Position numbers and translations under genes: made by a program | Part shown: positions 4,594-64,000 of the stretch, one piece after another | Layout of the letters: each line of letters starts with the position of its first letter | How positions within the stretch are numbered: position 1 is the stretch's first letter | Notes under the pieces: generated by a model | Seen by the model: only the letters and a program-made list of their open reading frames with translations | Database searches by the model: none | Told to the model about the DNA's origin: nothing | From: an uncultured Acholeplasmataceae bacterium | GTDB taxonomy: Bacteria; Bacillota_I; Bacilli_A; Acholeplasmatales; Acholeplasmataceae | Assembly: GCA_963539835.1 (NCBI GenBank) | Contig: CAUTMM010000003.1 | Coordinates: forward strand, 78,728-142,727 | Length of the DNA stretch: 64,000 nucleotides | Reading direction: 5' to 3'

Positions 4594-4620
4594 AAATCCT
4601 CCTTACTAGGTTTTAAAAAA

Positions 4621-4731: not shown

Positions 4732-4747
4732 TCTAAAATCTTTGCCT

Positions 4748-5393: not shown

Positions 5394-5435
5394 GTGTATA
5401 AACTCCTTTTTTGGTAGCAGTCTACCATTATTTTA

Positions 5436-5471: not shown

Positions 5472-5500
5472 ATTTTTGCTATTTTATTTGGTTAATAGTT

Positions 5501-9607: not shown

Positions 9608-9609
9608 TT

Positions 9610-30805: not shown

Positions 30806-31280
30806 TTAGTGTTTTACTAACACTAAGCCCAACACTGCATTTACAAAATAGACGCCTGGCTGTCCGTCTTTAGTTATATAGTATGCTTTTGGCAAAAAAA
30901 TTTGGCTTACTTTTTGTGCCATTCCATCATATCCCTTCATTGTTGTTTTCATAAAGCAACATCTAGTCAGTTCTTGATTTATCGTATGGATTGAAATTAA
31001 ATTTAGATTGCGGTAAAGCGGAAGTTCACCGCGTTGCTTGCCAAAAACTGCATTTGCACAATCAGTTGCTGTTTTAATTAGTTTATTTTGACTAGCAGAA
31101 TTTTCAGCAATTACTTTTTCAGGTAAATCTTTAAATTGCATAACTACTTTGAACTCATAATTTTAAACCTTTGGTTGCGCTGGTTTACAAGATGTTAAAT
31201 GAAATATCAAAATAGAAGTTAAAGCAACAAAAATAGTAATTGCAGTTGTTAAAACAGTATTTAAGCTGTTTATATTTTCA
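30806..31280 (-). pseudogene. Decayed fourth member of the surface-protein family (N-terminal anchor remnant plus C-terminal 111-codon fragment)
   Basis: The 111-codon ORF (30806-31141; TTG only, no SD) aligns with the last ~110 aa of the 616-aa paralog. NKLIKTATDCANAVFGKQRGELPLYRNLNL matches FKLIKNPTDFALAVLGKETGPNLVYRGVNF, and the end VLGLVLVKH matches VYGLVAAKR. At 31162-31280 a different frame reads ...NTVLTTAITIFVALTSILIFHLTSCKPAQPKV*. That is a TM or lipobox-like leader whose ATG (31280) is one frame off, next to an A4 run. Stops occur in all three frames at the junction. Confidence 0.55.
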
Positions 31281-31331: not shown

Positions 31332-33143
31332 CTATCTTTTTGCAGCAACTAAACCATAAACTTTAGCCACGTCTGTAAAGCCATAGTCTCCAGTTTCTTC
31401 AATGTATCTGACTAAATTAAGATTAGTACTTTCCTGGGTTGCAGTCCACCAATATTGATTTGAGTCTATAAAAAACTGCGGCATCCAGTTTTCATGGTTA
31501 TAGTTTAGCGGTCTAAATTGAGAGAAATTAACACCTCTGTAAACTAAATTTGGTCCAGTTTCTTTGCCAAGTACAGCCAATGCAAAATCGGTTGGGTTTT
31601 TGATTAGTTTAAAACGATTTGCCGGACTATCTGCAGTTTTTTCAACACCGAACTCACCATCGTCTAACGTAACTGCAAACAGTTCTGCTTTCATGATTTC
31701 AGAAATCTCTTGAAGTAAACTTTTGAAGATAGAGTTTACAAATGTCGCAACCTCAGGTTTGTTGTCTTGATGAATACTAAACGGAGTAAAGTCCAAAATC
31801 TTTTTTGTAAAATATGTTCTTTTATCTGGAATTGGGTCAAACTCAACTTCTTCGAATTTAAAGTATTCTCCATTTAATTTCTCATATGCTTCGCCAGAAT
31901 CGGTGTAAACCACAGTTCTAGTAAACTGTGCGGTTAACACTCTACCAACTGAATTGAAAGTTGCAGGAGTTTGGAAAACAATTTCTTTTTGAATGTCACT
32001 TTGATTAAGTTGAACTTTAGTTTGTGGATATAAGTTTGCCCCGTCTACTATTATGTGTTTGTAGTAAACTGTAATTTTTAGGTTTTTGTCAACCTTTGTT
32101 TTAAAAAGTTCTGCTTTAGTAATTGGAGTTCCGTTTAACTCAATTTTAGAAACTTGAAAGTTTTTGTCTTCTTGTAAATCTATGTTTTTTATTTCTTCGT
32201 TGTGTCTGCGAGTTTGTGGACTAATTTTTTTAGTTGCGGCTTTTATATCAAATTCTAAATTATAAACTTTTCTTTTAACATCTATTGTTACGATGTTTTG
32301 TGCAGGATCTTGAGCCACGACTAAACTTTGTCTGCTAACTTTTGGTGTTTGATAAACGTTTTCATCTGGATTTTTAAAATTAACTTGATGAGTAGAGCCA
32401 ATTTTTGTGTTTACTTCATGTGTGTTGGTAATTATTTGGCCGTTTTCGTCTTCTGTATTAACAATATATTTAACCTTAGTGATAGACGATACAAAAATAG
32501 GTTTGGCTTTTGTATTTTTATTTAATGGTACACTAAAATCTACTTTGTTACCGTCTTCATCAATATAGTGAGAAACCACTTGTTCCACACCTGCTACAAC
32601 TTTTTTAACATTAAAAAGAAGTTCTTTTACAGTTTTACTTAAAGTGTGTGAATACTTAAGTTCATATATTTTAGCAAGGTCTGTATGAATTGTGTCTGGT
32701 TTGATTTCAGGATCTGCGAAATCAAAAGTAACAGTATATTTTTTTAACTCAAAATAAAACACTAATTCCTGACTTGATTTTGTTGTGTCTACTGTCAATT
32801 GTGTTTTAGAAAGTGCTGGGCTGAAATCTGCATTGTGATTTGAAAAATCTTGTTCTGCTTTCAGTACAGTCCAGACTTTTTTAACTTTATCTTGCTTTAA
32901 ACTTACGGTTTTGCCATGTTCATATGCACCAATTTTTTGGTAAACTGTTTTTTCGGAGCCTTGATTGCTTAATTTTTCAAAAACTAATTTAACTCCAACG
33001 ATGGTTTTGTTTTTATCATTGCCTGTTGTTTGGCTACTAGATTTATGAGTTGCTAGCACTGTTGTTAAAGTAATAATAAAAATTAACAAAAAAACGGTTG
33101 CGGCAATTATAGAATAAATTGTGATTTTTTTTCTTTTTGACAT
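31332..33143 (-). CDS. N-terminally anchored surface protein, paralog A (603 aa from the SD-supported start), with a DUF6273-like C-terminal domain
   Basis: GGAG SD before the ATG at 33143 (MSKRKKITIYSIIAATVFLLIFIITLTTVLA). Beta-rich modules are shared with the 762-aa and giant proteins. The C-terminal domain has YPQTKV...NGEYFKFEEVEF...PTDFALAVLG...YWWTATQ...VYGLVAAKR. Confidence 0.8.
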   Translation of the reverse strand: MSKRKKITIYSIIAATVFLLIFIITLTTVLATHKSSSQTTGNDKNKTIVGVKLVFEKLSNQGSEKTVYQKIGAYEHGKTVSLKQDKVKKVWTVLKAEQDFSNHNADFSPALSKTQLTVDTTKSSQELVFYFELKKYTVTFDFADPEIKPDTIHTDLAKIYELKYSHTLSKTVKELLFNVKKVVAGVEQVVSHYIDEDGNKVDFSVPLNKNTKAKPIFVSSITKVKYIVNTEDENGQIITNTHEVNTKIGSTHQVNFKNPDENVYQTPKVSRQSLVVAQDPAQNIVTIDVKRKVYNLEFDIKAATKKISPQTRRHNEEIKNIDLQEDKNFQVSKIELNGTPITKAELFKTKVDKNLKITVYYKHIIVDGANLYPQTKVQLNQSDIQKEIVFQTPATFNSVGRVLTAQFTRTVVYTDSGEAYEKLNGEYFKFEEVEFDPIPDKRTYFTKKILDFTPFSIHQDNKPEVATFVNSIFKSLLQEISEIMKAELFAVTLDDGEFGVEKTADSPANRFKLIKNPTDFALAVLGKETGPNLVYRGVNFSQFRPLNYNHENWMPQFFIDSNQYWWTATQESTNLNLVRYIEETGDYGFTDVAKVYGLVAAKR

Positions 33144-33191
33144 ATTTCTCCTTAATTTAAAGCGCTTTATTACGATATGCACAAATATTTT

Positions 33192-33304: not shown

Positions 33305-35593
33305 TTATTTTTTACCTACAACAACACCAAAAACATTATAAACTGGGAAATAAGACCAATCCATTTTGTTGTTAATATCTTTTCTATAGACAATATATGA
33401 TTTAGGATCGATGTCTCCATGCTGAGTTGCAAGCCACCAAGAACCAAGATTATCAGGTGCATAATACGGCATCCATCTATCGCTGTCGTAGTCTGAAGGT
33501 TTAAAACCGCTAATGTCGTTTGCACGCAAAGAAGCGTATCTAAAGACTTTAGGTTGCTTAATTTCCGACATTAAAATTTCGGTGGCATAGTCGGTAGATT
33601 CTTTTCTAAGTTTTTCAGGTTCATTTCTAGCAATGTCGTTTACTCCAAACATTTTATCGGATTTGTCAAAAGTCAAAGGGTACAAGTTAGTTGTTCCAAA
33701 AATTTTTGAAATGTTTTGAAATAGACCATTCAAGATTGAGTTTTCGTATTTAGAGTTTTCCTTAACATCTTTTTTATATATATTAAAAGGCGTGTAGTCA
33801 ATAATTTTTTTAGAATAAAACCCAGTGGCACCAGGAATTTGGACAAACTCAACTTCTTCTAACTTAAAGTATTTGCCGTTGAATTTTTCGTATTTATCTG
33901 CACTATTTTTTCTGTAGACATATGTTCGAGTAAAATCAAATTTATGAGTTTTGCTGTCTGATTTAAACTCAAAACTTTGTTGTTTTGTTTCTTCTCTCAA
34001 AATATCTGCTTGCGTTAAGTCTACTTTAGTTTGTGGATATAAATATTTTGGAACAGAAACAACAATTTCAATTCTAACTGGTTTGTAGACTATGTAGTTT
34101 TCAACTTCCACTTTGGTTTTTTCTACATTGCCGATATAAAATTTAAGAATTTTGTCTTTGTATAAACTGTTTGTATCTATTGCGCCAACTTTTGCACCAT
34201 AATACACACCTCTTGCAGGTGGTGCAACTAAAGAGTTTATAACAGTAAAAGAAACTGTAAAGTAGCGACGTTTTAAAGTAATGGTTACTGTGTTTTCAGT
34301 GTTGTCTGCAGATACTTTAAAGGTAGTTCTTGTAAACTCAGGGTCAAAATAAATTACTTTGTTGTAGGCAAAAGAAACGGTGTGAGTTTCACCTATTTTT
34401 TGCTCTTGTGTTTGATAAGAGACTTTGTAGTGTCCATGCTCATTTTGACTTTTAATAATGTAGGTGATTTTACGAGTTTGAATTTCAACTTGAGCATACA
34501 AGTTAAGTTCGTTTACTCCTGCTATGTGTTTTGCTTGAACAGGTCCTGAAACAGAATCTGCCCAACCAATAAAGGTATAGTCGGTTTTTGGCTTAACTGA
34601 CGGATATTCAACTGCTCTGGTCAGTTTAACTAACTTGGTTTTAGGACCAGTAATATCAATGCTGTCATTTCCAATAAAATTTACTTTAGTAGTTTTTAAT
34701 CTATAGTACTGTTTTAAAACAACTGGAGTTCCGGTTTTATTTAGTTTTGCTGACAATAAGTTGCCACTGTGTGCTGTGTCTTTTTCGTATTTAGTTTTGT
34801 CCAAAGCAGTGTATTCTGTGTATTGAACTGTTTTTAAAGCAGTGTCTTTTTTTACTTCTTTAATTTCTTCATATGTGTTGTCAAGAGCACTACTTTCACC
34901 TTGTTTTTCAAGTAGGTGCATTACTGTATATTCTACTTCTAAGGCGGTTTTAGTAAATACTGGTTTGATTTTTAAGTCTGTGTTGTATGCTTTTTCAAAG
35001 TCTAAGGTTTCGCCGTTTTCAAGTAAAAAATGAGAAAGTGTGAACTTATGGGTTTCGTTGTCTTGCATTTTAACTGCAAGCAATGCTGTTTTAATTTCTG
35101 CGGGTATTTTGCTTGTGTACTTTAAGTTAAGTGGTTGTTTTAAGATATCTGAAACTGTAGATTGGTCAATTCCGCTTTCTGTAAAATCAAAAGTTATGCG
35201 GTAAGTTTTGGCTTTAAAGTAAAGTAAAAAATATTGCTTTTCGGCGCTAGAGTGAACTTTTAAAGTTTGCGTTGACTTTACAGAATCTGGTTTATTTTCG
35301 TGATTTTCAGAAACTAAGTCTTTTAATTTAGCGGTAATTTCAGGGTGCGTAATTTCAAGTTCAGTGCCTACTTTAAAATCACCAAGTTTGATTTCTTTTT
35401 CAAAGTCAGGTGCACTGTCTAGAGTTTCGTAAACTGTCTTTAGGTAAACTGTACTTTTGGTTTGAACTTCTGGATTGATTTTATCTTTTATTTTACTTTT
35501 AAAATGTAGTGTAAAAGCAACAGAAAGCGCAAAGATAAAGGCAAGTAATAACGCAAGCAAACCAATTAAAATATATTTCTTTTTAATTTTCAT
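33305..35593 (-). CDS. N-terminally anchored surface protein, paralog B (762 aa), with a Listeria-Bacteroides-repeat-like module and a DUF6273-like C-terminal domain
   Basis: Signal/anchor MKIKKKYILIGLLALLLAFIFALSVAF. YTFIGW repeat motif. Colinear with giant-protein residues ~1466-1640 and ~1889-2453. The C-terminal domain has YPQTKV...NGKYFKLEEVEF...STDYATEIL...SWWLATQ...VFGVVVGKK. Confidence 0.85.
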   Translation of the reverse strand: MKIKKKYILIGLLALLLAFIFALSVAFTLHFKSKIKDKINPEVQTKSTVYLKTVYETLDSAPDFEKEIKLGDFKVGTELEITHPEITAKLKDLVSENHENKPDSVKSTQTLKVHSSAEKQYFLLYFKAKTYRITFDFTESGIDQSTVSDILKQPLNLKYTSKIPAEIKTALLAVKMQDNETHKFTLSHFLLENGETLDFEKAYNTDLKIKPVFTKTALEVEYTVMHLLEKQGESSALDNTYEEIKEVKKDTALKTVQYTEYTALDKTKYEKDTAHSGNLLSAKLNKTGTPVVLKQYYRLKTTKVNFIGNDSIDITGPKTKLVKLTRAVEYPSVKPKTDYTFIGWADSVSGPVQAKHIAGVNELNLYAQVEIQTRKITYIIKSQNEHGHYKVSYQTQEQKIGETHTVSFAYNKVIYFDPEFTRTTFKVSADNTENTVTITLKRRYFTVSFTVINSLVAPPARGVYYGAKVGAIDTNSLYKDKILKFYIGNVEKTKVEVENYIVYKPVRIEIVVSVPKYLYPQTKVDLTQADILREETKQQSFEFKSDSKTHKFDFTRTYVYRKNSADKYEKFNGKYFKLEEVEFVQIPGATGFYSKKIIDYTPFNIYKKDVKENSKYENSILNGLFQNISKIFGTTNLYPLTFDKSDKMFGVNDIARNEPEKLRKESTDYATEILMSEIKQPKVFRYASLRANDISGFKPSDYDSDRWMPYYAPDNLGSWWLATQHGDIDPKSYIVYRKDINNKMDWSYFPVYNVFGVVVGKK

Positions 35594-39147: not shown

Positions 39148-40579
39148 ACTGCTTTTTGCAAGTCATAATTTAAACAAAGTTAAAGAAATTAAAGCATTTT
39201 TTTTAAACACTGAGTTTGAAATAATTTCTTTAACTGATTTAAATGACCAAACTAAAATCGAAGAATCCGGAAAAACTTTTCAAGAAAACGCGTTAATCAA
39301 AGCGCGTTATTTTTTCAATAAGTATCATTTGCCGACAATTGCCGACGACTCAGGTTTAGAAATAGTCGCATTAAACGGCTATCCTGGGGTTGAAACTAAA
39401 AGAAAAGAAGCAGAAATTTTTAAAAACCAAGGAAAACAGTTATTTGAAAAACTTAATGGTTTAAGTAAAAATGCCTCGTTTAAAGTGGTGCTTTGTCTTT
39501 ATTTTAACGGTGAGGCTAGGTACTTTGACGGTGAGATTAAAGGCGAGGTCAAACCGTACTCTGAGTTTGTCAAAAACACTTTTTTATATGACAACATTTT
39601 TTGGCCACGTGGCGCTAAGCGTGCTTTTTGTGAGTTTTCGGTAGACGAAAAAAATAAAATTTCGCACCGCGGGCAAGCAATTTCTAAGTTAATAAAATCA
39701 GTTAAGGGCAAGCCTTTTTTATTTGACCCTAAAAAAACTGCCTGCGCCTTTATTAAAGACACCTTTGGACTTGAACCTGAATATATAGACAGACTAAAAA
39801 AGGGCCGTCAAAACTTTGTTTTTAAGTTTCAGGTGTTTGGAAAAACTTACACTATTCGCATTCCTGGGTTTCCGCTTTATCCGTTTATTTCGTATACTGA
39901 CGAAGAAAAGATCCTAGAGATTGCCGAAAAAAACTCAATCTGCCCCGAAACTTTTTATCACAACCCAGATACTGGAATTAAGATCTCTAAATATATAGAG
40001 ACTACTTTAGAGTCTAAACCTGACTTAAAAGAAGTAGTTTTTAGGCTAAAAACACTTCACCAAATTAAAAAAGTAGAACCTTTTGACTATATTGCTCGGC
40101 TTGACGAAGCAATAAAAATGTCAAATTCTATTTCTGATAATTTAGATTTTCAAAAAGGATATCAGTTATTTAAAGCAGAACACAAAGAATTGTTTTCTAA
40201 ATTTTCGCCTTGTCAAATCCACGGTGATTTTCAGGCTGACAATATTTTGGTAGATAAATATTTTGCAAATCCTTTAATTTCTGATTTTGAGTTTACTAGA
40301 ACAGGATATCCAATTGAAGATATCACTAGTTTTTCAGGGCTTAGTTTAACTAAAATTAAAAAAGTTTTTGCACTTTATTTTGAAAAAGAACCGACAAAAA
40401 CAGAAATTAAGACTGTTTTATTCGCGCGTCTTTTTCAAATGCTTTTTTGGAATGCAGTGTCTAATTTTAAAAAAGATAGCAAAAACTCAGGTTTATTTAA
40501 TTTAAATTGGCAAGAAATTGAGACTTATTTAAATAACGAAGTTAAAAACACAATTGAGGCAATTGAGGACTTGAAATGA
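39140..40579 (+). CDS. Fusion protein: RdgB/HAM1-family non-canonical NTP pyrophosphatase (N) plus APH/choline-kinase-fold kinase-like domain (C)
   Basis: 479 aa. The N-terminal half has LLFASHNLNKVKE, ESGKTFQENALIKA, ADDSGLEIVALNGYPGV and EKNKISHRGQA. The C-terminal half has the catalytic-loop-like IHGDFQADNILVD and the metal-binding-like ISDFEF. Confidence 0.82.
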   Translation: MTKLLFASHNLNKVKEIKAFFLNTEFEIISLTDLNDQTKIEESGKTFQENALIKARYFFNKYHLPTIADDSGLEIVALNGYPGVETKRKEAEIFKNQGKQLFEKLNGLSKNASFKVVLCLYFNGEARYFDGEIKGEVKPYSEFVKNTFLYDNIFWPRGAKRAFCEFSVDEKNKISHRGQAISKLIKSVKGKPFLFDPKKTACAFIKDTFGLEPEYIDRLKKGRQNFVFKFQVFGKTYTIRIPGFPLYPFISYTDEEKILEIAEKNSICPETFYHNPDTGIKISKYIETTLESKPDLKEVVFRLKTLHQIKKVEPFDYIARLDEAIKMSNSISDNLDFQKGYQLFKAEHKELFSKFSPCQIHGDFQADNILVDKYFANPLISDFEFTRTGYPIEDITSFSGLSLTKIKKVFALYFEKEPTKTEIKTVLFARLFQMLFWNAVSNFKKDSKNSGLFNLNWQEIETYLNNEVKNTIEAIEDLK

Positions 40580-43578
40580 ATATAGAGAAATTATTGCTGC
40601 TTGAACGCACAGTAGACACAGTTTATATCATTAAGTCTTTTTTAGATAAAAACACAATTTCTTTGCAAGACTATCGTCGTGCGGTTTTTTTCATGCAAGA
40701 AATACTTTTAGAAAACCACAAACACAAAGAAGCAATTGAAGTTTCAAACTCCGTATGGCCAAAGTTCAAAGAAGCCGAAGAAAAAGAATATCTACTTTTT
40801 TTAACTAATTGGTTTTGGGCGTATTTAAGAAGTGGCAGCTCAGTAAATGCTCGCGAGATTTTTTTAAAAATTAAAGAAAAATACGGCTACAAAGTTGACT
40901 TTGATTTAGTTTATCTAGAGATAAATTTACTTAAACTAGAACAAAAGTTTGACTCAGATAAAGTTATTTCAGAGCTGAAAAAAACAGATTTGCCAGAAAA
41001 CTACGCTAGATACTATTTAAAAGAACTAGTTTCGTTTTTTGTCAGTCAAAACAAATTAGACTTAGCCTATGACTATTTAAATCAGGCAAATTCCAGATTT
41101 GATGAGCGTGACTTTGAACAAGAACTTAAATTGCTATTCGCCCTTGGTTGGGTTGACGAACTAAAACAAGTTTTAAAAGACTGCAATGGTATGGGCAAAT
41201 ATAAGGTAATTTCACAAGTTTACCACTATTGTATCGCTGTTAGCGAACAAAACAACCACCGCGCAGATATTATTCAGTCAGAATACGAAAAAGACATTTT
41301 AAAGTTAGCAGACAATGACTTAATTTTAATGTTTCTAGAGGCTCAACTTAAGTTTTTTAAAGCAAACTCACAACGTAACAACGAAGAAAAAACAGCGAAA
41401 CGCATCGCTAAGTTTCAGCAAAAGAAAGACAAAACAACTAAGTTAAACCTTGGGGAAGAACCAGTTATTTCACTTCAAGAAGATACTAAACCTAACTTTG
41501 AAGTAAAAGAAAAAGCCATAAAAGTTGAGGCCAGAGTTTATCAAAACTTTTTTGACGTCATGAGTTTTTACGCCAAAATTCCGCAAGATTTGAGTCTAAG
41601 AGAAACACTTAGAAGTCTTTTAATTAAAAGTGAGGCTTTAGTGCCAGCGGCTGATTTAGTAATTTTAAAAAATCAAACTTTATATAACTACAAAAAAGAA
41701 AGACTTTACAACAAAGATATTGAAGATATTCAGTTAGCTGATACCGCTTTTAGTAAACTAGTTCAAGTTAACTTTGACAAAATATACCAACAAGGCGATT
41801 TAACTGAGTTTAAAAACCCACTTACTGGCAGTCCATACTCCCCTGAATACCAGACGCTTTACTGTTTTTCTTTAAGCAAAAACTTAAAGTTTATCGTGCA
41901 AAGTCATAACTTTCAAGAAAGTGAATACACTTATTTTAAATTACTTTCAGCGCTTATTTTAGATGTTTTTGAAAAAGACAAAAACTTACTTAAACTAAAA
42001 CAAATTACTAACTTATTTACGACTTTAAAAGAAAACTCAACTCTGGCGTTTAAATACTACATAGACGAGCAAATTCATCTAAGCGTAGGAATGCGCGCGC
42101 TTTTAGACGGAGTTGAGACAACTACGCTAGACCAATACTGCACGCAAATTGTGGGTAGCGACAAAATTAGCTATAAAAAAGAGTTTTTAACTTGTAGTTT
42201 AAAACCAGGAAACTCACTAAAGCAAAAATACAGACTCAGAAAAAAACAAGTTGTGGAACTCGCAAGTTCTGTTGATTTATTTGGTAAAGTCGTGGTCTTT
42301 TCAGTAGTTTTAGACATAGACGAAGAACAAAGAACAATTAACACTTTGGCTGAAACTGCAAAGGTCAACAATATATATGGGCTGTATTCACACACAGAAC
42401 TTGAACGCGCTTTTCAAAGCAAGTTAATTGATAAGTTTTCCTTAATTTTAATTGAACTGAACTTCAATAACCGACATCTTTACTCACTTGAACTACAAGA
42501 AAAATATATTGCTGAGTTTCTAGATGTTTTAAAAGAGTTTTTTAACACTGACTTAATTTACTTCATTCAAGACAACAAGTTTGCTTTGTATGTGGATTTT
42601 AACGACATCAGAGCCTTGAGTAATGTGCTTAGTGAACTAAGTAAAAAAACACAAAACATCGGCAAACAAAACTGCTTAGAGTTAACCTTCTTATTTACAG
42701 CCTCTGCACTTAGATATCCAACTGCAACTTACAACAAAACTTTTAAAAAAATCTACAGATTTGCAGACCTTGCTTTAAACCTTGCTAAAACAAATGGAAA
42801 AGTCTTTCATATTTTTGAAAAAGAAGACCTGCACCAAGATATTTTTGAAGACGATGTTATCAAACTAATTTTAAACTATCCAGATAAGCTGAAGTTAATG
42901 CTTTTGCCAATAGTTGATGAAAACAAAAATGTTGTGCTTTACCAGGCTGGTTTTAGTCTAGACGGCTTTGACCTGGATTTTAAAGAAATTAAAGAAATTG
43001 CAAAAAAACACCGCAAGGCTGTAGAAATTGACTCAATTTTGTTTAAAGAAGTTGTAAATGCTTTAAATATAGCAACCGAAAAATTTGGCCAGATTTTTGA
43101 TGTTCTTTTACCACTGTCTAAAGAGTCTTTAATGTCTCTAGAGCTTAAAAAACAAATAAGTAAACTAAAATACAAATATCTAGCCCCACACATTTGCTTC
43201 TTATTTCCAAATGAAGAAGAACTACCCGGCGTTGTTGAAAACTTCAAGCAAAACCTTGAACAAAGTAAACATAAAGTGTTTACCAAAAATATCTCGGCGT
43301 ATTTAAGATACGGTTTTCAAGGAGTAGTTCAAAGATACACCGACGGCATTCGTTTTACTGAGTTTATCAAGATGTTTGCCCTTGAAACTAAAAAAACAAA
43401 CTCTTGTTTGATTGTCAAAGACTTAACTAAAAAAGATGAGTTTAACTCAATTAAAAAAATCAAAGACATTTGTTTTCAAGGTAAGTTATTCGCGCCAATT
43501 TCGGTTAGCGAAATATTTAGCAAAATGCAAGAAACTCAAGTCCAAAAGCCTGAGTTAGACAATGAAAACGAGATTTAA
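40576..43578 (+). CDS. 1000-aa multidomain protein: helical-repeat N-terminus, GAF/PAS-like middle, degenerate GGDEF and degenerate EAL domains
   Basis: ATGA overlap with the upstream stop. A PAS-to-GGDEF junction-like segment reads VVLDIDEEQRTINTLAETAKVNNIYGLYSHTELERAF. The GGDEF position reads IQDNKFALYV. ADLALNLAKTNGK stands in place of ADxALYxAKxxGR. The EAL part has LLPIV (for YQPIV), YQAGFSL (for EALLR) and a terminal FQGKLFAPIS (for QGYLFSxP). The CDS is secure; the domain calls are motif-level only. Confidence 0.8.
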   Translation: MNIEKLLLLERTVDTVYIIKSFLDKNTISLQDYRRAVFFMQEILLENHKHKEAIEVSNSVWPKFKEAEEKEYLLFLTNWFWAYLRSGSSVNAREIFLKIKEKYGYKVDFDLVYLEINLLKLEQKFDSDKVISELKKTDLPENYARYYLKELVSFFVSQNKLDLAYDYLNQANSRFDERDFEQELKLLFALGWVDELKQVLKDCNGMGKYKVISQVYHYCIAVSEQNNHRADIIQSEYEKDILKLADNDLILMFLEAQLKFFKANSQRNNEEKTAKRIAKFQQKKDKTTKLNLGEEPVISLQEDTKPNFEVKEKAIKVEARVYQNFFDVMSFYAKIPQDLSLRETLRSLLIKSEALVPAADLVILKNQTLYNYKKERLYNKDIEDIQLADTAFSKLVQVNFDKIYQQGDLTEFKNPLTGSPYSPEYQTLYCFSLSKNLKFIVQSHNFQESEYTYFKLLSALILDVFEKDKNLLKLKQITNLFTTLKENSTLAFKYYIDEQIHLSVGMRALLDGVETTTLDQYCTQIVGSDKISYKKEFLTCSLKPGNSLKQKYRLRKKQVVELASSVDLFGKVVVFSVVLDIDEEQRTINTLAETAKVNNIYGLYSHTELERAFQSKLIDKFSLILIELNFNNRHLYSLELQEKYIAEFLDVLKEFFNTDLIYFIQDNKFALYVDFNDIRALSNVLSELSKKTQNIGKQNCLELTFLFTASALRYPTATYNKTFKKIYRFADLALNLAKTNGKVFHIFEKEDLHQDIFEDDVIKLILNYPDKLKLMLLPIVDENKNVVLYQAGFSLDGFDLDFKEIKEIAKKHRKAVEIDSILFKEVVNALNIATEKFGQIFDVLLPLSKESLMSLELKKQISKLKYKYLAPHICFLFPNEEELPGVVENFKQNLEQSKHKVFTKNISAYLRYGFQGVVQRYTDGIRFTEFIKMFALETKKTNSCLIVKDLTKKDEFNSIKKIKDICFQGKLFAPISVSEIFSKMQETQVQKPELDNENEI

Positions 43579-56033: not shown

Positions 56034-56135
56034 ACAAAAAGTACCATTTACCTAACTTTATAGGAAAGTTAACTAAAAAATTTAAGAAAGCAACCTAAAG
56101 TTGTTTTGAGAAAAAAATTTTCAGTAAATAAAAAT

Positions 56136-56160
56136 AAGGGTGTGCGATATGCACACCCTT
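56136..56160. terminator. Bidirectional rho-independent terminator (HAD gene / giant surface protein gene)
   Basis: AAGGGTGTGC-GATAT-GCACACCCTT, flanked by A-rich and T-rich tracts. Confidence 0.75.
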
Positions 56161-56208
56161 ATTAAACTTTTTAATTTTTATTTTAGCGTTGGAAAATTAA
56201 ATAAAAGT

Positions 56209-59200
56209 TTAAGAATAAATGTATGGACGACAAGGCACAACCCCACCAATAAAGTTCATTGGGTAGTGAGTGTTACTAAAATATGTTGAGTTAGTGCGAT
56301 AAACACCTGTTATACCTTCAATATAGCCATTATAATTTTTATAAACTTCTGCGGTAAGATATGCATATGGTCGTTTACTTTGATCGTTGTATTGATTATC
56401 TTCAAAATACCAACTAGACAAATAATTAGTTAAACTAGCCGGAATTAGTTTAGCAAAATCAATACCACGATAAATTTGTGTAGTAGCCGCAGTCCAAGGT
56501 CCAAGAATTTCTTTTGCATAATCTGTAGGTTCTTTGACTAATTTGTTTATCTTACTTGGATTTACAGAATGGTAAAGAGCGTTATCTCCATGACTCCAGG
56601 TAGGTGGTGTAAGTTCTGCGATTCCCATAACCGCAGCAATATCTTTAAGCATCGCTTTGAAAATTGAGTTTTTAAATTCATATCCGGCGTAACCTCGGTT
56701 TGCAGATATAGTGTATGGCGAAAAGTCAATAATTTTTTCTGTCATTAAACTTTCTTTTGTAGCTAGTTTCTTCCAAACAACATCTTCAAATTTAAAGTAT
56801 TTGCCGTTATATTTCTCAAAACGATTGCCTTGCGTATCTTTTACAAATACACGGTTGAACTTAGCAACAAGGTCAAAGCCATCTGCGTTGAAGCGAAGTG
56901 TTCTTTCACTAACTTCTTCGGCTTCAAGACTACCTGGATTTTCTACTAAAGTTTGTGGGTACTGATATTTAACTTCTTCATACCAACCAAATTTCAAGGA
57001 GACTTCCGTGTTTTTTGTAACTAAATAGGTTTCAATGTAGGCTAAATTGTGTTTTGCGATTTTTTGACCGTCAATTCGGAAATCCAGGCGGTCAAAGCCA
57101 TAATATTCAACTTGACTTATTTCAATTTTGCCAATTGCAGCACCATGTTTAAGTCTGCGTTCATATAATTGGTATAGATCTTGCGGTGCACCTTCAACAT
57201 TGAAAGTTACTTTATAGACGTGTAGTTTTAAATAGATAGTAACAACATTGTGTTGGTCATCTTTGTGAACTGTGATAGTTGGATTTGAAAAAGTCATTTC
57301 GTATTTTTCAGGTTCAGGGTTTTCATATTTAGCGGCGTAAAAAGAACCAATTTTTGCTTTGTCTTTTTTAAATTTAGTTATCTCGTATTCACCGTCTAAC
57401 TTTTCCTTGCGAATTTCATAAGTAATATCTCTTTCTTTGGCTATGTAGACTGGATATAAGTAAATACTTTCCTTAGTAATAGGGGCAACAAATTTAGTTA
57501 AAGGTCCATCAATGTTAGCAGGATAATTAGACCAACCCGCAAAAGTCTCGGAATCAGTATCCGGAAGTTTGCGAGATAGGTTCACCAAGCGAGTCATTTT
57601 AACTTGCACGCCTTCTGGATATTGGTCGTTAATAGTTTTTTTGTAGTATACAGTGACAGACTTAAGTGAATAGTACTGATAAACTTTAACGGTGTTATCA
57701 CCTGGTGTTAAGTCAGCGGTTAGTTGATTTGCTTTAGTAGTATCTAAAAAGTAAAGGTCGTTGTTTAATTTAGGATATGCTTCGTATTTTGCACCCAATT
57801 CAACTAGTTGGTCTTTTTTAGTTTCAATAATTTCGTCGTACTTGTCGTTTAGATCAGCAGACTCACCTTGTTTTTCAAGGTAGTGTACGATTTGATAATT
57901 GACTTTGTGAATTTCAACTTCAAAGAAAGGCAAGAGGTCAACAGGTCCGGCAATTCTGTAGGTACTAAAATCTAAAGCAGTGGTTTCTAAATAAGCGCCA
58001 TTCATTTCTTTGCTGTCTTGCCAGTGTTTAAATTTATAAGTGCGACCATGGAAAACAATTGAAGGGTTAATTAACGGTTTAGGGATTTTTGCACCATACT
58101 TAAGCATTAGTTTAGTTGGCATATCGTTTATTTTTAGACCTTGGTTTGAAAAATAATAATAATTTATAAAATGTCTATCCCAAGTTACTTGAAAAACTTT
58201 GCGTATGTATCTTAACTTAAATACGGTAGAACCGTCTGGTGCAATATTTTGAGTCTGGCTATCTGACATTGTAAACCCGTGGTAGTACTTCCACATACCG
58301 TCTTTGCCGTCAACAGTTACCGAGGTGTTAGAAATTGCTCTTCTGGTAACTGTGCGAACTTCTTCAGCGATATCTCCTTCAATTCCTTCAAAAATGTGCT
58401 CAATTGTGTAAGTAGTGTAGTCTGGCGCAAATACTGCGTAGACTTTAGTAGTGTTTCTTGTGATGATAAAATCACCTGGTTTTCCTTTTGGAACAGATGC
58501 CCAACCGACAATCTTCCAGCCTTTTTTGACGTTAGTATTCGTATTAAATCTAAAGTAATTGCCAGCAGTTGCTTGAATAGACGGCCAGGTTGGATTCTCT
58601 ACTTTATCTAGGTCGTCGTCGTCAACGGTTGGAGTGATTTTAACGGTAACTTTTCTCTTTTTATATTTAGCCTCTAAGAATACGTTTTTGTTGTAAGCAA
58701 CTGTTGGGTCAAACTTGGTGCCTGAAACTAAAAAGCGATCAAACTCATAGTCAAAATATTGGTTTGTTGTAATTGGTTTGATTTGAGCAAGTTCATCTAA
58801 GAATCTCTTTGAAACGGTTTGTGAATATTTAACTGTCTCACCATTTTTAACATAGTCAGAAATAGAAGAAGAATCAGTTTCATTATAGGTATAAAACCTA
58901 ACTGTGTAGGTATTGGCCTTGTAGTAAGCAGTTAAAAACTTCTTGTCTTTTTCTTTCGTTACTATCAATTCAAATACAGTATTTTGACTCTTTGTGTAGT
59001 CGTTAATGTGGTTTGGATGCGGGTTGTTTCGCAGGTATTCACTGATAATTGAATCAAACCTTTTTAAATCAATCTTACCACCAATTGTAACGTCAATTGG
59101 ATACGGCAATTCTTTGACTTCATCTGGTGAGTTGTCTAGAGTTTCCCAAACTAAACGGACATAAACAGGGCGAGTGGCTTGATTTTCTTGCCACTTCGCT

Positions 59201-62200
59201 TTCAAAGTAAGGTCGCTGGTTACCACAGTTGGAGAATTGTCAGGGTCAAACGAAATACTTGAGTTGTCCAAAGAATTTACCCATCGTCTAAATTTATAAA
59301 TTATTTCTGCATTAGGGTCAATTTTAGTAGGGTGTTTAACATCTTTAATAATTTGTTGGTATTTATACTGAACTGAGGTGTGTGAGTTGCCGTTAACTTC
59401 ACCTCCATTATAGTCGTAAGTTACAGTAAAGATTTTTCTTGTGTAATTTAAAACAAAACTAGTTTGTCCGTTTGCCAGTATTTTTTTCTCTTCAGAAAAA
59501 GGAGCAAGTTCAAAACCTTCTTCTAGTCTAACCAGACGGTCAGCCTCAGTTACTTTAACAGTTGAGTTTACTACACCTATTTTGGTTTCTAGTTCTATTC
59601 TTTCAGGGATATTGTCAACACCAGGCAAGACGTGCTTGATAGTGTAGTTTACAGTAGTTTGTTTTTCTTCAAAGAAAGCAACTAAAGTAATATCTTTATT
59701 GACAGTAGTTGAACTAAAGTCAAAAGCAGAAATTTCTTTATATTCACCGTTCATGTCAGTTTTTAGCTGCCAATGTTTAAAGGTGTAAGTATAGCCTTCT
59801 TTAATCATGGTTGGTGCAAACTCAGGTCTGCGGACTTTACCTTGATACTTAATTGCTTGACTAGGTTCAAGAGACTCAGCAACATCACTAAAATAATTGC
59901 CGTTGTAGTTAACTTCAAAGTTAACTTTATACTGTTTACGGAAATATCTTAAGATAAAGTAAGTTGTGGTGTTAGCCTCAATAATTTTAGTTTGAGTTTG
60001 GTCAGCAATGTTAAAGCCTTCGTCGTAGCCAACTAAACGGTTGTCTCGGTTAACTGTGACTTTAGTTCCAACGTTTACTGTGACTTTAGGGTCTTCAATA
60101 GTCTTTGTCTTAACGTTGTCAACACCTTCAATGATGTGTTGAATGATGTAGCCTGCTGTGGTTACAGTTTCTTCAAAGAAGGCAACCAAGGTAATGTTTT
60201 TAGTGATTTTAGTGTTGAAGTTAAACTCACTTACAAAACGGTATGTATCGTTCATATCGTCTTTAAGTTGCCAGTGGATGAATTTGTAGTTAAAGCCTTG
60301 TTTTTGAATAGTTGGGTATTGAGCAGGTCTAATAGCTTTTCCTTCATACTCCACAGTTTGCGGACTTTGACTAGAAGCCTTGACGTCTTTAAAGTGATTG
60401 CCTTTAAAGTTAACTTCAAAAGAGACGGTAAACGTACGGCGACGATACACTAAGGTAAAGACAGTAGAACCGTCTGCTTTGATTGCCTGAGTTTGGTTTT
60501 GTTGATCAACTATAAAGCCTTCGTCATAACCAGGTAGACGATTTTCTCGGTTAATTGTAACTAAACTACCAATTTGCGCAGTTTTACTGTTATCAACAAT
60601 CTCTTGATTGCTGGTCTGACCAGTAATTCCGTTGATAATGTGTTTAATTGTATATTTAGCGTTAGCTGCACTTGACTCAAAATAAGCAACCAACGTTAAG
60701 TTTCTATTAACTTGAACATTGCCAAAATCAAAAGCAGAAACTTTAGCATAATTGCCATTCATTTCGTCTTTAAGTTGCCAGTGAATGAACTTAAAGGTGT
60801 AGCCAGGTTTAGTTAAAATAGGGTGGTTATTTGGTCTCTTAACTCTACCTTCAAAACCAATGATTTGATCTGGCTCCACAGACGAAGTGGCACCTGAGAA
60901 ATATGTGTTATTGTAGTTAACTTCAAAGTTAATACGGTAAGTTTTTCGTGTGTAGACTAAAGTAAATGAAGTAGAACCATCGGCTTCTATTTTCTTAGTT
61001 TGATTTTGTTGTTCCACATCAAAACCGTGGTCATAGTTGTCTTTACGGTTATTGCGGTTAACTGTGACTTGTGAGTTAATTTCTGCGTACTTAGTCTCAA
61101 TAATTTCTTTATCCGGAGAACCGTCAACTCCTTTGATAATGTGCTTAATTGTATATTTAGCACTAGATATGTCTTCTGCAAAAAAAGCAACCAAGTTTAG
61201 ACTTTGTGTAACTTGGTGGTCAGCAAAGTTAAACTCAGGCTGTTCTGTGTACTGCCCGTTCATAGCCAGTTCGTTTTGCCAATGTTTAAAGGTAAAAGTA
61301 CGACCAGGTTTTTCAATTGTTGGGTTAACAGCAGGTTTCTTAACCTTACCTTGATACTTAATTTTTTGGGTTTCTGGGTTTGGAGAAACACTTGCGTCTT
61401 TGACACGGTTGTTGTAGTTTACAGTAAAATTAACTTCAAAAGTTTTGCGTTCATATCTAAGTTCAAACACAGTAGAGCCATCTGCCTGAATAACTTTGCT
61501 TTGACTAGGTGTTTTGACAACAAAACCGGTATCAAACTCAGTTAAACGGTTGCTTTTAGAAATTGTGACGGTGTCGTTAGTTTGCGCCTTGCCATAAGTT
61601 TCTTTGACAACTTCGTCAATTTCATTTTCAATTCCTTCAAGGATATGTCTAACTGTATAAGTAGTTTCAGTTGGAGCAAACACAGCGTAAACTTCAGTTG
61701 TAGTTCTGCTTATTGTAATTTGTTGAACTGGTCCGCCTGGTAAAGTTGTCCAACCTAAGAACTTCCAACCTTTTTTAATGTTTGTGCCTAGTGGCAGATA
61801 GTTAAAATGTTGACCTGCAAATACTTTTTGAACAGGCCAAGTTTGACTGTTGACTTTGTCAACATCCGAGTCTGCTGCTTTTGGAGTTACTGAAACTAAA
61901 ACAGGTTTAGTTTTAAAGACAGGTTTCACAACTATATTTTTATTATATGGAGTGTTAACGTCTAGTTCCAAGCCAGTTGACTCATCTATTAGTTTTTCAA
62001 ACTCGTAGTCATTGTAGTCATCTGCTGGTTTTTGAACTTTTTTCATGGCTTCAATTAACTCAGCAGAAATTTTATTTGAATGTTTAAAGGTGTTAGTGCG
62101 TTTCAAAATATCTGCAACTGATTGATCTGCCAATCCTGTGCGGTTAAATTCAACATTGTAAGTTTTGGCTTTAAAGTAAAAAGTCAAGTATTGTTTTTCT

Positions 62201-64000
62201 AACTTATCTTCAACGTCTATTGCAGTTGTAGAGTTAGCTGAAAACACTTCGTCGTGATGGAAAGGATGTGGATGATTTGCTTTGAATTGAGACAAGGTTC
62301 TCTGAACATCTGAGTCGTCGCTTTTCAGTAGTTTGCCAACTGGTTTTTCTTTTTGAACTAAAGCCTCTTTAATTTCGTCTTGTATGCCGTCTAAGTTCTC
62401 CCAAATCATCTTTAGGTAAACTGGACGAGTGTTGACTTTCTCTTCCCATTTGGCTTTTAAAAGTAATGGTTTGGTAACTTTTACAGGGTAGTCAAAATCA
62501 AGTAAACTACCAGTTTCTTGATTTATCCAACCAACAAAACGATAAACTTTTTGTCCAGTTTGGTCTTTTTTAACAGGGTGGCTGATGTCTTTTAAAGTTT
62601 GCTCATATTGATACTCAACAGTCTTTTTGTTTTCACCATTTAATTCACCTGAATTGTAGTCGTAAACTACATTGAATTTACGACGCACATAGGTTAAGGT
62701 AAAAGTAGTTTGACCATTTGCCTGAATTTTTTTAGTTTCAGTTTGCTGAGGTAAATCAAAGCCGGCAGTTAAGTATTGTTGTAGACCGTTTGCTTCAGAA
62801 ACAGAGACCGTGCTGTCTACTTTGCCAGTTTTAACTTCTGTAACGGTTCTTTCTGCGATTTTTTCAACGCCAGGCAGAACATGGTTGATCGTGTAGTTAG
62901 CAGTAGCCACTTCTTCTTTAAAGTAAGCAACTAAAGTTGTGGCTTTTGTGATTTTGGTGTTAGCGAAATCAAATGGAGTCACTTCTTTATACTCGTTGTT
63001 CATCGCTGCCTTGTCTTGCCAGTGTACAAAGGTGTATGTGTAGCCTGGTTTCTTTAAAGCAGGCGCAAAATCTGGTTTTGCTACTTTTCCTTGAAATGCA
63101 ATGTCTTGTGTAGGTTGCGTGGTTTGAGTAACTCCCGAAAAATGAGAGTTGTTGAAGTTTACTTCAAAGTTTACTTTATAAATTTTTCTAATGTATTTTA
63201 AGACAAAAGTAGTAGAACCATCTGCTTCAATAGTTTTAGTTTGACTTTGCTTCTCTACATCAAATCCTTCATCATAACCGCTTAAACGACTTGAATTGTC
63301 AACAGTTACTTCACTACCTACAAGTGCTGATTTAGTTGAGTCTTTAATAATTTCGTCGTCTTGTCCATCAACTCCTTGAATTTCGTGTCTAATTGTATAG
63401 TTAGCAGTAGTTTTTTCTTCTTCAAAATAAGCAACTAAAGTTATATTGCTAGTGATTTTGGTGTTAGCAAAATCAAAAGCAGAAATTTTTTGGTAGCTGC
63501 CATACATGTAGTCCTTAAGTTGCCAGTGTACAAAGCGGTAGTTAAAACCAGGTTTAGTTAAAGTAGGCAATTGACTAGGAACTGTTGCCTTGCCTTCAAA
63601 TTGTACGGTTTCACTTGCTTGAACAGAAGGAGTGGCGTCTTGAAAGTGGCTGCCTTTGTAGTTAACTTCGTAAGTTACTGTGAATCTACGACGTTTATAT
63701 CTAAGGGTAAAAGTAGTTGAACCATCTGCTAAAATTGGCTTAGTTTGATTTTGTTGTTCAACTTCAAAACCAGCATCATATTGAGTTAAACGGTTTTCGC
63801 GGTTAACAGTAACAAGAGAACCGATTTGCCCTGATTTTGAGGAATCCGTGGTTGTTGAGTCAGCTTGACCAGATAGTCCTTCAAAAACGTGGTTAATGGT
63901 GTATTTAGCAGTTGTAACTTTCTGTTCAAAATAAGCAACTAATGTTAGGTTTTTAGTGATTTTGGTGTTAGTAAAATCAAATGCCTGGATTTTTTCGTAG
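56209..64000 (-). CDS. Giant repeat-containing surface protein (more than 2,596 aa; N-terminus lies beyond the right window edge), with a DUF6273-like C-terminal domain
   Basis: The ORF-track start at 63570 is a TTG inside a repeat. I translated 63571-63999 in the same frame and it stays open, reading ...ADGSTTFTLRYKRRRFTVTYEVNYKGSHFQDATPSVQASETVQFEGKATVPSQ-LPTLTKPGFNYRF. So the gene continues off-window. There is no LPXTG motif or C-terminal TM. Confidence 0.9.
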   Translation of the reverse strand, partial: YEKIQAFDFTNTKITKNLTLVAYFEQKVTTAKYTINHVFEGLSGQADSTTTDSSKSGQIGSLVTVNRENRLTQYDAGFEVEQQNQTKPILADGSTTFTLRYKRRRFTVTYEVNYKGSHFQDATPSVQASETVQFEGKATVPSQLPTLTKPGFNYRFVHWQLKDYMYGSYQKISAFDFANTKITSNITLVAYFEEEKTTANYTIRHEIQGVDGQDDEIIKDSTKSALVGSEVTVDNSSRLSGYDEGFDVEKQSQTKTIEADGSTTFVLKYIRKIYKVNFEVNFNNSHFSGVTQTTQPTQDIAFQGKVAKPDFAPALKKPGYTYTFVHWQDKAAMNNEYKEVTPFDFANTKITKATTLVAYFKEEVATANYTINHVLPGVEKIAERTVTEVKTGKVDSTVSVSEANGLQQYLTAGFDLPQQTETKKIQANGQTTFTLTYVRRKFNVVYDYNSGELNGENKKTVEYQYEQTLKDISHPVKKDQTGQKVYRFVGWINQETGSLLDFDYPVKVTKPLLLKAKWEEKVNTRPVYLKMIWENLDGIQDEIKEALVQKEKPVGKLLKSDDSDVQRTLSQFKANHPHPFHHDEVFSANSTTAIDVEDKLEKQYLTFYFKAKTYNVEFNRTGLADQSVADILKRTNTFKHSNKISAELIEAMKKVQKPADDYNDYEFEKLIDESTGLELDVNTPYNKNIVVKPVFKTKPVLVSVTPKAADSDVDKVNSQTWPVQKVFAGQHFNYLPLGTNIKKGWKFLGWTTLPGGPVQQITISRTTTEVYAVFAPTETTYTVRHILEGIENEIDEVVKETYGKAQTNDTVTISKSNRLTEFDTGFVVKTPSQSKVIQADGSTVFELRYERKTFEVNFTVNYNNRVKDASVSPNPETQKIKYQGKVKKPAVNPTIEKPGRTFTFKHWQNELAMNGQYTEQPEFNFADHQVTQSLNLVAFFAEDISSAKYTIKHIIKGVDGSPDKEIIETKYAEINSQVTVNRNNRKDNYDHGFDVEQQNQTKKIEADGSTSFTLVYTRKTYRINFEVNYNNTYFSGATSSVEPDQIIGFEGRVKRPNNHPILTKPGYTFKFIHWQLKDEMNGNYAKVSAFDFGNVQVNRNLTLVAYFESSAANAKYTIKHIINGITGQTSNQEIVDNSKTAQIGSLVTINRENRLPGYDEGFIVDQQNQTQAIKADGSTVFTLVYRRRTFTVSFEVNFKGNHFKDVKASSQSPQTVEYEGKAIRPAQYPTIQKQGFNYKFIHWQLKDDMNDTYRFVSEFNFNTKITKNITLVAFFEETVTTAGYIIQHIIEGVDNVKTKTIEDPKVTVNVGTKVTVNRDNRLVGYDEGFNIADQTQTKIIEANTTTYFILRYFRKQYKVNFEVNYNGNYFSDVAESLEPSQAIKYQGKVRRPEFAPTMIKEGYTYTFKHWQLKTDMNGEYKEISAFDFSSTTVNKDITLVAFFEEKQTTVNYTIKHVLPGVDNIPERIELETKIGVVNSTVKVTEADRLVRLEEGFELAPFSEEKKILANGQTSFVLNYTRKIFTVTYDYNGGEVNGNSHTSVQYKYQQIIKDVKHPTKIDPNAEIIYKFRRWVNSLDNSSISFDPDNSPTVVTSDLTLKAKWQENQATRPVYVRLVWETLDNSPDEVKELPYPIDVTIGGKIDLKRFDSIISEYLRNNPHPNHINDYTKSQNTVFELIVTKEKDKKFLTAYYKANTYTVRFYTYNETDSSSISDYVKNGETVKYSQTVSKRFLDELAQIKPITTNQYFDYEFDRFLVSGTKFDPTVAYNKNVFLEAKYKKRKVTVKITPTVDDDDLDKVENPTWPSIQATAGNYFRFNTNTNVKKGWKIVGWASVPKGKPGDFIITRNTTKVYAVFAPDYTTYTIEHIFEGIEGDIAEEVRTVTRRAISNTSVTVDGKDGMWKYYHGFTMSDSQTQNIAPDGSTVFKLRYIRKVFQVTWDRHFINYYYFSNQGLKINDMPTKLMLKYGAKIPKPLINPSIVFHGRTYKFKHWQDSKEMNGAYLETTALDFSTYRIAGPVDLLPFFEVEIHKVNYQIVHYLEKQGESADLNDKYDEIIETKKDQLVELGAKYEAYPKLNNDLYFLDTTKANQLTADLTPGDNTVKVYQYYSLKSVTVYYKKTINDQYPEGVQVKMTRLVNLSRKLPDTDSETFAGWSNYPANIDGPLTKFVAPITKESIYLYPVYIAKERDITYEIRKEKLDGEYEITKFKKDKAKIGSFYAAKYENPEPEKYEMTFSNPTITVHKDDQHNVVTIYLKLHVYKVTFNVEGAPQDLYQLYERRLKHGAAIGKIEISQVEYYGFDRLDFRIDGQKIAKHNLAYIETYLVTKNTEVSLKFGWYEEVKYQYPQTLVENPGSLEAEEVSERTLRFNADGFDLVAKFNRVFVKDTQGNRFEKYNGKYFKFEDVVWKKLATKESLMTEKIIDFSPYTISANRGYAGYEFKNSIFKAMLKDIAAVMGIAELTPPTWSHGDNALYHSVNPSKINKLVKEPTDYAKEILGPWTAATTQIYRGIDFAKLIPASLTNYLSSWYFEDNQYNDQSKRPYAYLTAEVYKNYNGYIEGITGVYRTNSTYFSNTHYPMNFIGGVVPCRPYIYS
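57403..64000 (-). repeat. Divergent in-frame tandem repeats, unit about 504 nt (167-169 aa), nested inside a ~3.25-kb internal duplication
   Basis: The [A/V]xYTIxH motif recurs at residues 56, 224, 637, 804, 971, 1139, 1307, 1720 and 1889 of the tracked ORF. It alternates with KPGYT[YF]xF[VI]HWQ motifs. DNA-level echoes are visible, e.g. gattttggtgttag[ct][ag]aaatcaaa at 62950, 63451 and 63958. Confidence 0.85.

Follow-up and report, generated by a model that had tools for sequence, protein, structure and literature searches.

One end of the window, a stretch of 64,000 nucleotides from an uncultured Acholeplasmataceae bacterium (contig CAUTMM010000003.1, positions 78,728 to 142,727), is occupied by the 3' part of a 12.9-kb gene read from the reverse strand. 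The gene product, a protein of 4,309 amino acids (aa) referred to here as the giant protein, is probably a membrane-anchored fibril on the surface of a wall-less cell, built from a long repetitive stalk and a ligand-binding head. An earlier interpretation based on the nucleotide sequence of the window (the sequence-only reading) had described a giant surface protein with Listeria-Bacteroides repeats and without C-terminal anchor, which is upheld here, whereas its MucBP label for one of the two repeat modules is not. It had missed an N-terminal helix, a super-repeat, a non-repeat region, a C-terminal head related to DUF6273, and the paralogues of the gene.

Gene extent, genomic context and N-terminal helix

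The reading frame runs for 2,596 codons without an internal stop (56209-63999, reverse strand; stop codon 56209-56211) and stays open to the window edge, as had been reported before. Its translation, called the window protein in the following, is identical to residues 1714-4309 of the database protein P0112 (4,309 aa), which is encoded on a contig of 162,935 bp. Residues 1715-4309 of a second protein, P0001 (4,310 aa), align to it without gaps at 94.7% identity. P0112 and P0001 both continue upstream, and no stop or frameshift follows just past 64000. The protein is thus truncated by the window and not in nature, and the open reading frame (ORF) is confirmed as a real gene, intact beyond the window. 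The start codon is located approximately 5.1 kb past the window edge, while the TTG at 63570, which the sequence-only reading had already placed inside a repeat, is internal to the longer protein and represents the first start-like codon of a frame that leaves the window. The gene is by far the largest of the window, the second being rpoC (1,368 aa). As proposed earlier, the giant, repetitive protein is real and very probably extracellular. The gene and the adjoining terminator are located as follows.

56209..63999, reverse strand: giant gene, C-terminal 2,596 codons and stop of a 4,309-codon gene (exact match within P0112)
56133..56163, no strand assigned: terminator-like hairpin with a stem of 13-14 bp, readable on both strands, between the giant gene and a convergent HAD-hydrolase gene

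Close relatives of the C-terminal 569 aa are encoded in nine GTDB species-representative metagenome-assembled genomes (MAGs), all of which are titled uncultured Acholeplasmataceae bacterium. These hosts are wall-less Mollicutes using the standard genetic code. The full-length protein, for which the N-terminus was taken from the P0112 record alone, begins with MTKKQKSFLITSILLTTLIAIFLFTLFIFAHPK..., a short positively charged stretch followed by a hydrophobic helix of about 23 residues. Hydrophobic segments, scored over 19 residues each, were detected only at residues 5-37 of 4,309 and nowhere in the 2,596 residues of the window protein, in line with the earlier statement that a C-terminal wall or membrane anchor signal is missing. 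An LPXTG/sortase anchor (motif, hydrophobic segment and charged tail) is absent as well; the C-terminus reads ...GGVVPCRPYIYS and contains no hydrophobic segment. The lack of a C-terminal anchor can be ascribed to the presence of an N-terminal membrane helix in a wall-less host. No cysteine is found within the N-terminal 80 residues of P0112, hence there is no lipobox and the protein does not qualify as a lipoprotein. Since a gene for Lgt is present in the window, the lipoprotein pathway is available but unused by the giant protein. Judged from its sequence, the protein is most likely attached through an N-terminal signal-anchor, the remainder being outside the cell.

The Lgt homologue (prolipoprotein diacylglyceryl transferase; 22760-24184, reverse strand) is a 474-aa protein in which the Pfam domain covers residues 60-303, followed by an unexplained C-terminal extension of approximately 170 aa.

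Terminator-like sites were found three times, compared to 0.2 expected. Downstream of the giant gene, the strong hairpin terminator is followed by the convergent HAD-hydrolase gene and by tig, lon, engB, degV and valS. This order, from the giant gene to valS, is kept in five to six related MAGs, in which the neighbouring genes are 92-98% identical. The conserved housekeeping synteny indicates that the giant gene is a stable chromosomal resident and not part of a mobile element or phage. A phage tail fibre or prophage gene was rejected on the grounds of this synteny and of the N-terminal membrane helix.

Repeat architecture of the stalk

The repetitive part of the window protein was dissected with hidden Markov models (HMMs) derived from a single unit. 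Nine complete A modules (about 74 aa; independent E-values (i-E) of 1e-25 to 1e-33) and nine complete B modules (about 86-90 aa) were identified, alternating with a period of approximately 168 aa, and one further B module, the tail of a tenth unit, is cut by the window edge. The consensus sequences of both modules reproduce the motifs given in the sequence-only reading, which had also described alternating two-module units of 168 aa. The nine complete units are in agreement with this description, but they do not fill the whole ORF, which additionally encodes spacers, a non-repeat region and the C-terminal domain C3. In a chunked self-comparison, the A-B units share 30-62% protein identity with each other, and tandem repeats at the DNA level were not found in the giant gene. 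Modules A and B have no detectable relationship to each other (hhalign probability 0.4%). The segments preceding C3 are listed here with residue numbers of the window protein.

62437..63999, reverse strand: repeat block I (aa 1-521), a B-module tail followed by three A-B units, the last with a variant B module, B' (HMM domain tables)
61663..62436, reverse strand: spacer S1 (aa 522-779), distinct from A and B and recurring as S2 (self-comparison; A and B signals sub-threshold only)
59182..61662, reverse strand: repeat block II (aa 780-1606), made of five A-B units with B' in the final one (HMMs; the unit at aa 1115-1282 was modelled)
58414..59181, reverse strand: spacer S2 (aa 1607-1862; self-comparison; the only Pfam signal above threshold belongs to the adjoining B')
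57913..58413, reverse strand: last A-B unit (aa 1863-2029; HMMs)
56983..57912, reverse strand: pre-terminal non-repeat region (aa 2030-2339, about 310 aa), conserved in the family (A-like and B-like patterns not significant)

The two copies of the second block type, the spacer (about 257 aa, residues 522-779 and 1607-1862), are 30-43% identical and define a higher-order super-repeat of approximately 1,083 aa. The final B module ahead of each spacer is the shorter variant B', which is closest to canonical Flg_new. The giant protein comprises 15 A-B units arranged in three super-repeats split by spacers, plus extra modules. A full-length relative likewise contains 15 A-B units in three super-repeats, with an N-terminal region of about 495 aa and the same C-terminus. 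An interpretation of the spacers, the pre-terminal region and the N-terminal region N2 as diverged A or B copies was dropped: the iterated HMMs that had suggested it had drifted onto the A and B modules, and both clean canonical-unit HMMs and single-segment hhalign comparisons gave only sub-threshold signals.

Module B is a Listeria-Bacteroides or InlB B-repeat (Flg_new) by Pfam and by fold, as had been anticipated in the sequence-only reading. The Flg_new model (PF09479) matched the whole window protein with 62.7 bits (E 3.5e-17) in four stretches, well above the gathering threshold of 27 bits, and no other Pfam family and no NCBIfam model was matched by the whole window protein. Among 26 diverse units of the family, the B half of 22 matched Flg_new at E<=1, the best with 9.7e-15; an individual canonical unit of the window reached 23.5 bits, just under the cut-off. 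A profile of the unit matched the sequence of the InlB B-repeat structure 2y5p (E 0.0011). An AlphaFold model of the unit at aa 1115-1282 was obtained with a predicted local distance difference test score (pLDDT) of 96.2, and Foldseek placed its B half on 2y5p with a template modelling score (TM) of 0.71-0.74, normalised to the target, and a probability of 1.0. The fold of the B-repeat is beta-grasp-like (PMC8900821). The likeness to InlB extends over the Pfam model, the B-repeat profile and the fold. The canonical B module of the giant protein differs in its length of 86-90 residues compared to 65 model positions, which implies insertions, and in its strict alternation with an unrelated module A. 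InlB contains one B-repeat and is bound non-covalently to the wall, whereas the giant protein has at least 15 B modules and a membrane helix.

The proposal that module A is a MucBP domain failed every test, with sequence as well as with structure, and the label MucBP-like is not supported. The MucBP model (PF06458) matched neither the whole protein (E<=0.1) nor any of nine A modules (E<=10) or 26 units (E<=1), i.e. none of 35 module scans, and two profiles built from module A only retrieved no MucBP-containing chain from the PDB at E<=10. The isolated MucBP structures 3q69 and 3nz3 fitted the unit model poorly (TM 0.21-0.24, Foldseek probability 0.13-0.20). Module A has no Pfam family and is identified here as a repeat module outside Pfam.

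The whole A-B unit was matched by Foldseek to the two-domain Mub repeats of YwfG (7yl6_B, probability 0.94), 3i57 (0.69) and 4mt5 (0.44). These matches are moderate, with TM values of about 0.3, a root mean square deviation of 8-19 A and none at E<=0.001. The first subdomain of the YwfG Mub repeat is a ubiquitin-like beta-grasp, and its two subdomains were taken as equivalent to B1 and B2 in Mub repeats of L. reuteri (PMC9815576). The giant protein shares with L. reuteri MUB and Lactococcus YwfG the organization as a surface protein with two-subdomain units of about 170-185 residues, but it lacks any MucBP sequence signal, reaches a TM of only about 0.3 and is not fitted well by isolated MucBP domains. 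Mub proteins are wall-anchored via LPXTG. On the basis of these structural models, it is plausible that the A-B unit works like a Mub-type repeat.

The C-terminal domain C3 and its family

The repetitive part and the pre-terminal region are followed by a domain of different character, C3, which is considered the likeliest functional domain of the giant protein.

56212..56982, reverse strand: C3 head domain (aa 2340-2596, 257 aa), single-copy, conserved in 53/59 homologues, with remote homology to DUF6273
56212..56445, reverse strand: C3 tail (aa 2519-2596), fastest-evolving part among orthologues (identity 78%; dN/dS 0.35)

In these 53 homologues, C3 is present once per protein and always at the extreme C-terminus. 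Its invariant motifs are YPQ, R, YEKYNG-Y-K-E, IID, TDYA and G-V, and its AlphaFold model is confident, with a pLDDT of 80.8 and a predicted TM score (pTM) of 0.86. An exhaustive search with a C3 profile among 1.84 billion representative proteins yielded 42 clusters at E<=0.001, which makes C3 a rare domain. Among the weakest of the 42 matches are P0095, P0101 and P0104, three proteins that clear the Pfam threshold for DUF6273, and the C3 matches fall inside each DUF6273 copy of these proteins. P0095 reads as a sequence intermediate between C3 and DUF6273. In a profile-profile comparison (hhalign), C3 matched six bona fide DUF6273 domains with a probability of 97.4% (E 1.1e-11) over 173 columns. 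Only one of 19 C3 domains of the family gave a marginal DUF6273 match in Pfam (E 0.054). The intermediates together with the profile-profile match identify C3 as a divergent relative of DUF6273 beyond the reach of the Pfam model.

DUF6273 is reported to resemble the C-type lectin fold and is a domain of phage receptor-binding proteins that is diversified by diversity-generating retroelements (DGRs) (PMC10743442); its variable region maps to the C-terminus of the domain (PMC11792537). Besides the homology, two features are shared between the giant protein and the known DUF6273 proteins, i.e. the phage 'tentaclin' receptor-binding proteins, the DGR targets and the IgA protease of Thomasclavelia ramosa with its N-terminal DUF6273 domain. 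The variable part lies at the C-terminal end of the domain in both, and Flg_new or B-repeat domains co-occur with it in both. In contrast to DUF6273, C3 has an extra N-terminal beta-hairpin region (positions 1-49) outside the alignment, and it is cellular, chromosomally encoded and forms the distal end of a protein of 4,309 aa, with no DGR found in the window.

The sole cysteine of the 2,596 residues of the window protein is residue 2590 (56227-56229), six residues from the C-terminus. Most family members end with ...GVVVCIR, but this cysteine is replaced by threonine in four orthologues and by alanine in other family members, and a functional role was rejected since the residue is not essential.

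C3 is not confined to the giant protein. Three further ORFs in the window, none with a Pfam match, were identified with the C3 HMM.

33305..35593, reverse strand: small paralogue of 762 aa with N-terminal hydrophobic helix, short stalk and C3 (i-E 1e-47)
31332..33182, reverse strand: small paralogue of 616 aa with N-terminal hydrophobic helix, short stalk and C3 (i-E 2e-52)
30806..31141, reverse strand: ORF of 111 aa with a match restricted to the C-terminal part of C3, a probable remnant of a gene

A second giant paralogue is encoded in a related, 95% identical sequence (L001, positions 2-8179), directly upstream of the orthologue and on the same strand. It comprises at least 2,725 aa with 10 A modules, 10 B modules and one C3. 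The two giant genes are separated by positions 8180-8317, which contain a hairpin (AACACCTAGG...CCTAGGTGTT) and an AGGAGG ribosome-binding site. On a single contig of 175 kb, three family members of 4,310, 3,523 and 2,315 aa are encoded. The small genes of 616 and 762 aa together with the giant paralogues show that one family of C3 heads sits on stalks that differ widely in length.

Two genes on the reverse strand adjoin the small C3 genes on their upstream side (35605-37810). One product is 181 aa long and has two hydrophobic segments; the other, of 555 aa, carries a C-terminal Rce1-like/CPBP intramembrane protease domain (E 1e-15). A functional link of these two proteins to the C3 family is possible.

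Selection, proposed function and alternatives

Six full-length orthologues were compared, which are 4,309-4,312 aa long, share 89.5-96.5% identity and align with at most five gap columns. A variation of repeat number between isolates, for which the sequence-only reading had proposed a test, was not seen in these database orthologues, and no length variation of the 'periscope' type is found among them. Shorter members of the cluster are fragments at contig ends or, in L007, result from an apparent frameshift. In L007, the orthologue is split into the overlapping ORFs 3-6713 and 6695-11710, which explains the 1,605-aa cluster member P0109; the split near position 6700 is a frameshift or an assembly error. 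Rates of nonsynonymous to synonymous substitution (dN/dS) were obtained from a protein-guided codon alignment of the orthologues, eight of which were compared over the C3 tail.

Stalk (2,027 codons): dN/dS 0.09
Pre-terminal region: dN/dS 0.15
C3 core: dN/dS 0.13
C3 tail (last 78 residues): dN/dS 0.35

Strong purifying selection acts on the giant gene (dN/dS 0.09). The C3 core is 90% conserved among the orthologues. The C3 tail evolves approximately four times faster, with a mean pairwise identity of 78% compared to 90-96% elsewhere.

In the proposed model, the N-terminal helix would fix that end of the protein in the membrane, with all remaining parts outside the cell. The approximately 3,700 residues of small beta-rich modules may act as a fairly stiff stalk, comparable to tandem beta-grasp and Ig-like repeats, which have been described as projecting ('periscope') domains (PMC12415215). 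By simple arithmetic and not by measurement (about 50 domains of 3-4 nm each), the stalk would hold C3 at approximately 100-200 nm from the cell. There, C3 would bind a ligand, either glycan or protein, that might be presented by a host, a substrate or another cell. The binding surface could be formed by the fast-evolving C-terminal tail of C3, the same region that is diversified in phage DUF6273 proteins. Since C3 is also found on the neighbouring 616- and 762-aa gene products and on giant paralogues in related genomes, a cell may display several related heads at various distances from its membrane.

The giant protein belongs to a known kind of bacterial adhesin, of which it represents an unusual variant, and is not wholly new. 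With periscope proteins and giant adhesins of Gram-positive bacteria it has in common an anchor, an extended rod made of small domains in tandem and a distal functional domain (PMC12415215). It differs from them in the anchor, which is an N-terminal helix in a wall-less cell and consequently leaves the C-terminus as the functional end. SasG, Rib and Ebh are examples of such periscope or giant repetitive adhesins of Gram-positive bacteria. Furthermore, the repeats of the giant protein are diverged (30-62% identity, no tandem repeats in the DNA), and length varies among paralogues instead of alleles. In the literature, nothing was found on Acholeplasma with Listeria-Bacteroides repeats, on InlB with MucBP or on surface proteins of Acholeplasmataceae.

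Several points weigh against an anchored fibril with a ligand-binding head. The hydrophobic stretch at the N-terminus might instead be a signal peptide that is cleaved (...FIFA/HP), in which case the protein would be secreted and not anchored. The C3 model had no fold neighbour in the PDB (best E 0.6, TM <= 0.17), a C-type lectin included, and no structural neighbour among the viral models of BFVD. In Pfam, C3 of the window was not matched at E<=10 and thus stays below the gathering threshold of DUF6273 (PF19789; 23.5 bits). A lectin-like character of C3 would be derived from homology and published models and not from a direct structural match. The function of DUF6273 has been stated as unknown, and the solved constructs of the IgA protease omit this domain (PMC12415215). 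No solved structure of DUF6273 is known, with which the empty fold search for C3 agrees. In addition, the faster evolution of the C3 tail (dN/dS 0.35, below 1) could result from relaxed constraint instead of being driven by a ligand.

A more far-reaching version of the anchored fibril is put forward only tentatively. The C3 domains might constitute a cellular branch of the DUF6273 receptor-binding superfamily, presented at graded distances from the cell on proteins of 616, 762, about 2,300-3,900 and 4,309 residues, where each head would recognize its own ligand via the tail and diversification would proceed by duplication and point substitution without a retroelement.

Among the rival explanations, a protective coat or spacer survives best, although it is considered unlikely. 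The proteins would form a dense brush that replaces a wall or capsule and keeps phages, predators and host defences off the naked membrane, with a head lacking a specific ligand. The host has indeed no wall, the stalk accounts for about 85% of the protein and is its most constrained part (dN/dS 0.09), and the strictly kept length of 4,309-4,312 aa fits a length-dependent function. On the other hand, a single-copy terminal domain that is retained in 53 of the 59 homologues, and on short stalks as well, suggests that the head matters in itself, and the relatives of this head are receptor-binding domains. Both roles, coat and binding by the head, are not mutually exclusive.

It is rather improbable that the giant protein is secreted or shed and carries an undetected enzymatic domain, by analogy to the IgA protease of T. 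ramosa. This protease combines DUF6273, a peptidase and B-repeat-like domains (PMC12415215), so that both building blocks of the giant protein, DUF6273 and the B-repeat-like beta-grasp, are found in an enzyme from a related lineage. The sequence ...FIFA/HP could serve as a signal-peptidase site, and a 225-aa region near the N-terminus (N1) as well as the spacers have no assigned family. However, neither the window protein nor the N-terminal 494 residues of P0001 gave a match to a peptidase or any other catalytic family. Moreover, typical cleaved signal peptides have a hydrophobic stretch shorter than the approximately 23 residues present here.

Even less likely is a surface receptor whose C3 tail is hypermutated by a DGR encoded at another genomic site. 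DGR targets recurrently include DUF6273, with the variable region at its C-terminus, and the C3 tail is the most variable segment of the giant protein and rich in Asn, Tyr, Ser and Thr. Nevertheless, the window contains no template-repeat-like copy of the 3' end of the gene, the DNA of the C3 genes matches only in the conserved core, and no reverse transcriptase was identified among the 38 window ORFs scanned (>=100 aa). A convergent housekeeping gene and a terminator are located directly downstream, and the differences in the tail among the eight orthologues are moderate and scattered (dN/dS 0.35) instead of being concentrated in a hypervariable stretch.

The least credible alternative is a contact-dependent toxin, in which the giant filament would deliver a variable C-terminal toxin as in contact-dependent inhibition (CDI), Rhs or MafB-type systems: although the protein is giant and repetitive, its C-terminal domain has a variable end and one of 19 C3 sequences gave a chance-level match to Ntox44 (E 0.044), C3 is homologous to DUF6273 and to no toxin family, its core is 90% conserved in orthologues and not swapped like toxin tips, a candidate immunity gene is not found next to it, where the convergent HAD hydrolase is conserved in all related MAGs, and Pfam and NCBIfam scans revealed no pre-toxin motif or cleavage domain.

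To our knowledge, the surface structures of uncultured wall-less bacteria have been little studied outside the pathogenic mycoplasmas and the phytoplasmas. A 12.9-kb gene with conserved position and length across related genomes, maintained by strong purifying selection, must together with its paralogues take up an appreciable part of a small genome. This suggests a central role in the lifestyle, most plausibly attachment. Through C3, a cellular surface protein is linked to DUF6273, which is known mainly as a hypervariable receptor-binding module of phages and as the N-terminal domain, so far unexplained, of an IgA protease from the gut; this opens another route to the function of DUF6273. The periscope model assumes a variable length, while the diverged repeats of the giant protein keep theirs fixed; this contrast could serve to test the importance of reach. 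If a cellular DUF6273 branch exists, it would provide a tractable non-phage system for a first biochemical function and an experimental structure of DUF6273, and stalk length would be a selected trait, fixed within 3 residues over approximately 10% divergence.

Two further genes of the window, both on the forward strand, are mentioned here. An ORF of 479 aa (39140-40579) combines Ham1-type (non-canonical NTP pyrophosphatase) and phosphotransferase (APH) domains in an unusual fusion. An ORF of 1,000 aa (40576-43578), located after a TrkA-like gene and this Ham1-APH fusion gene, has no Pfam family at E<=0.001.

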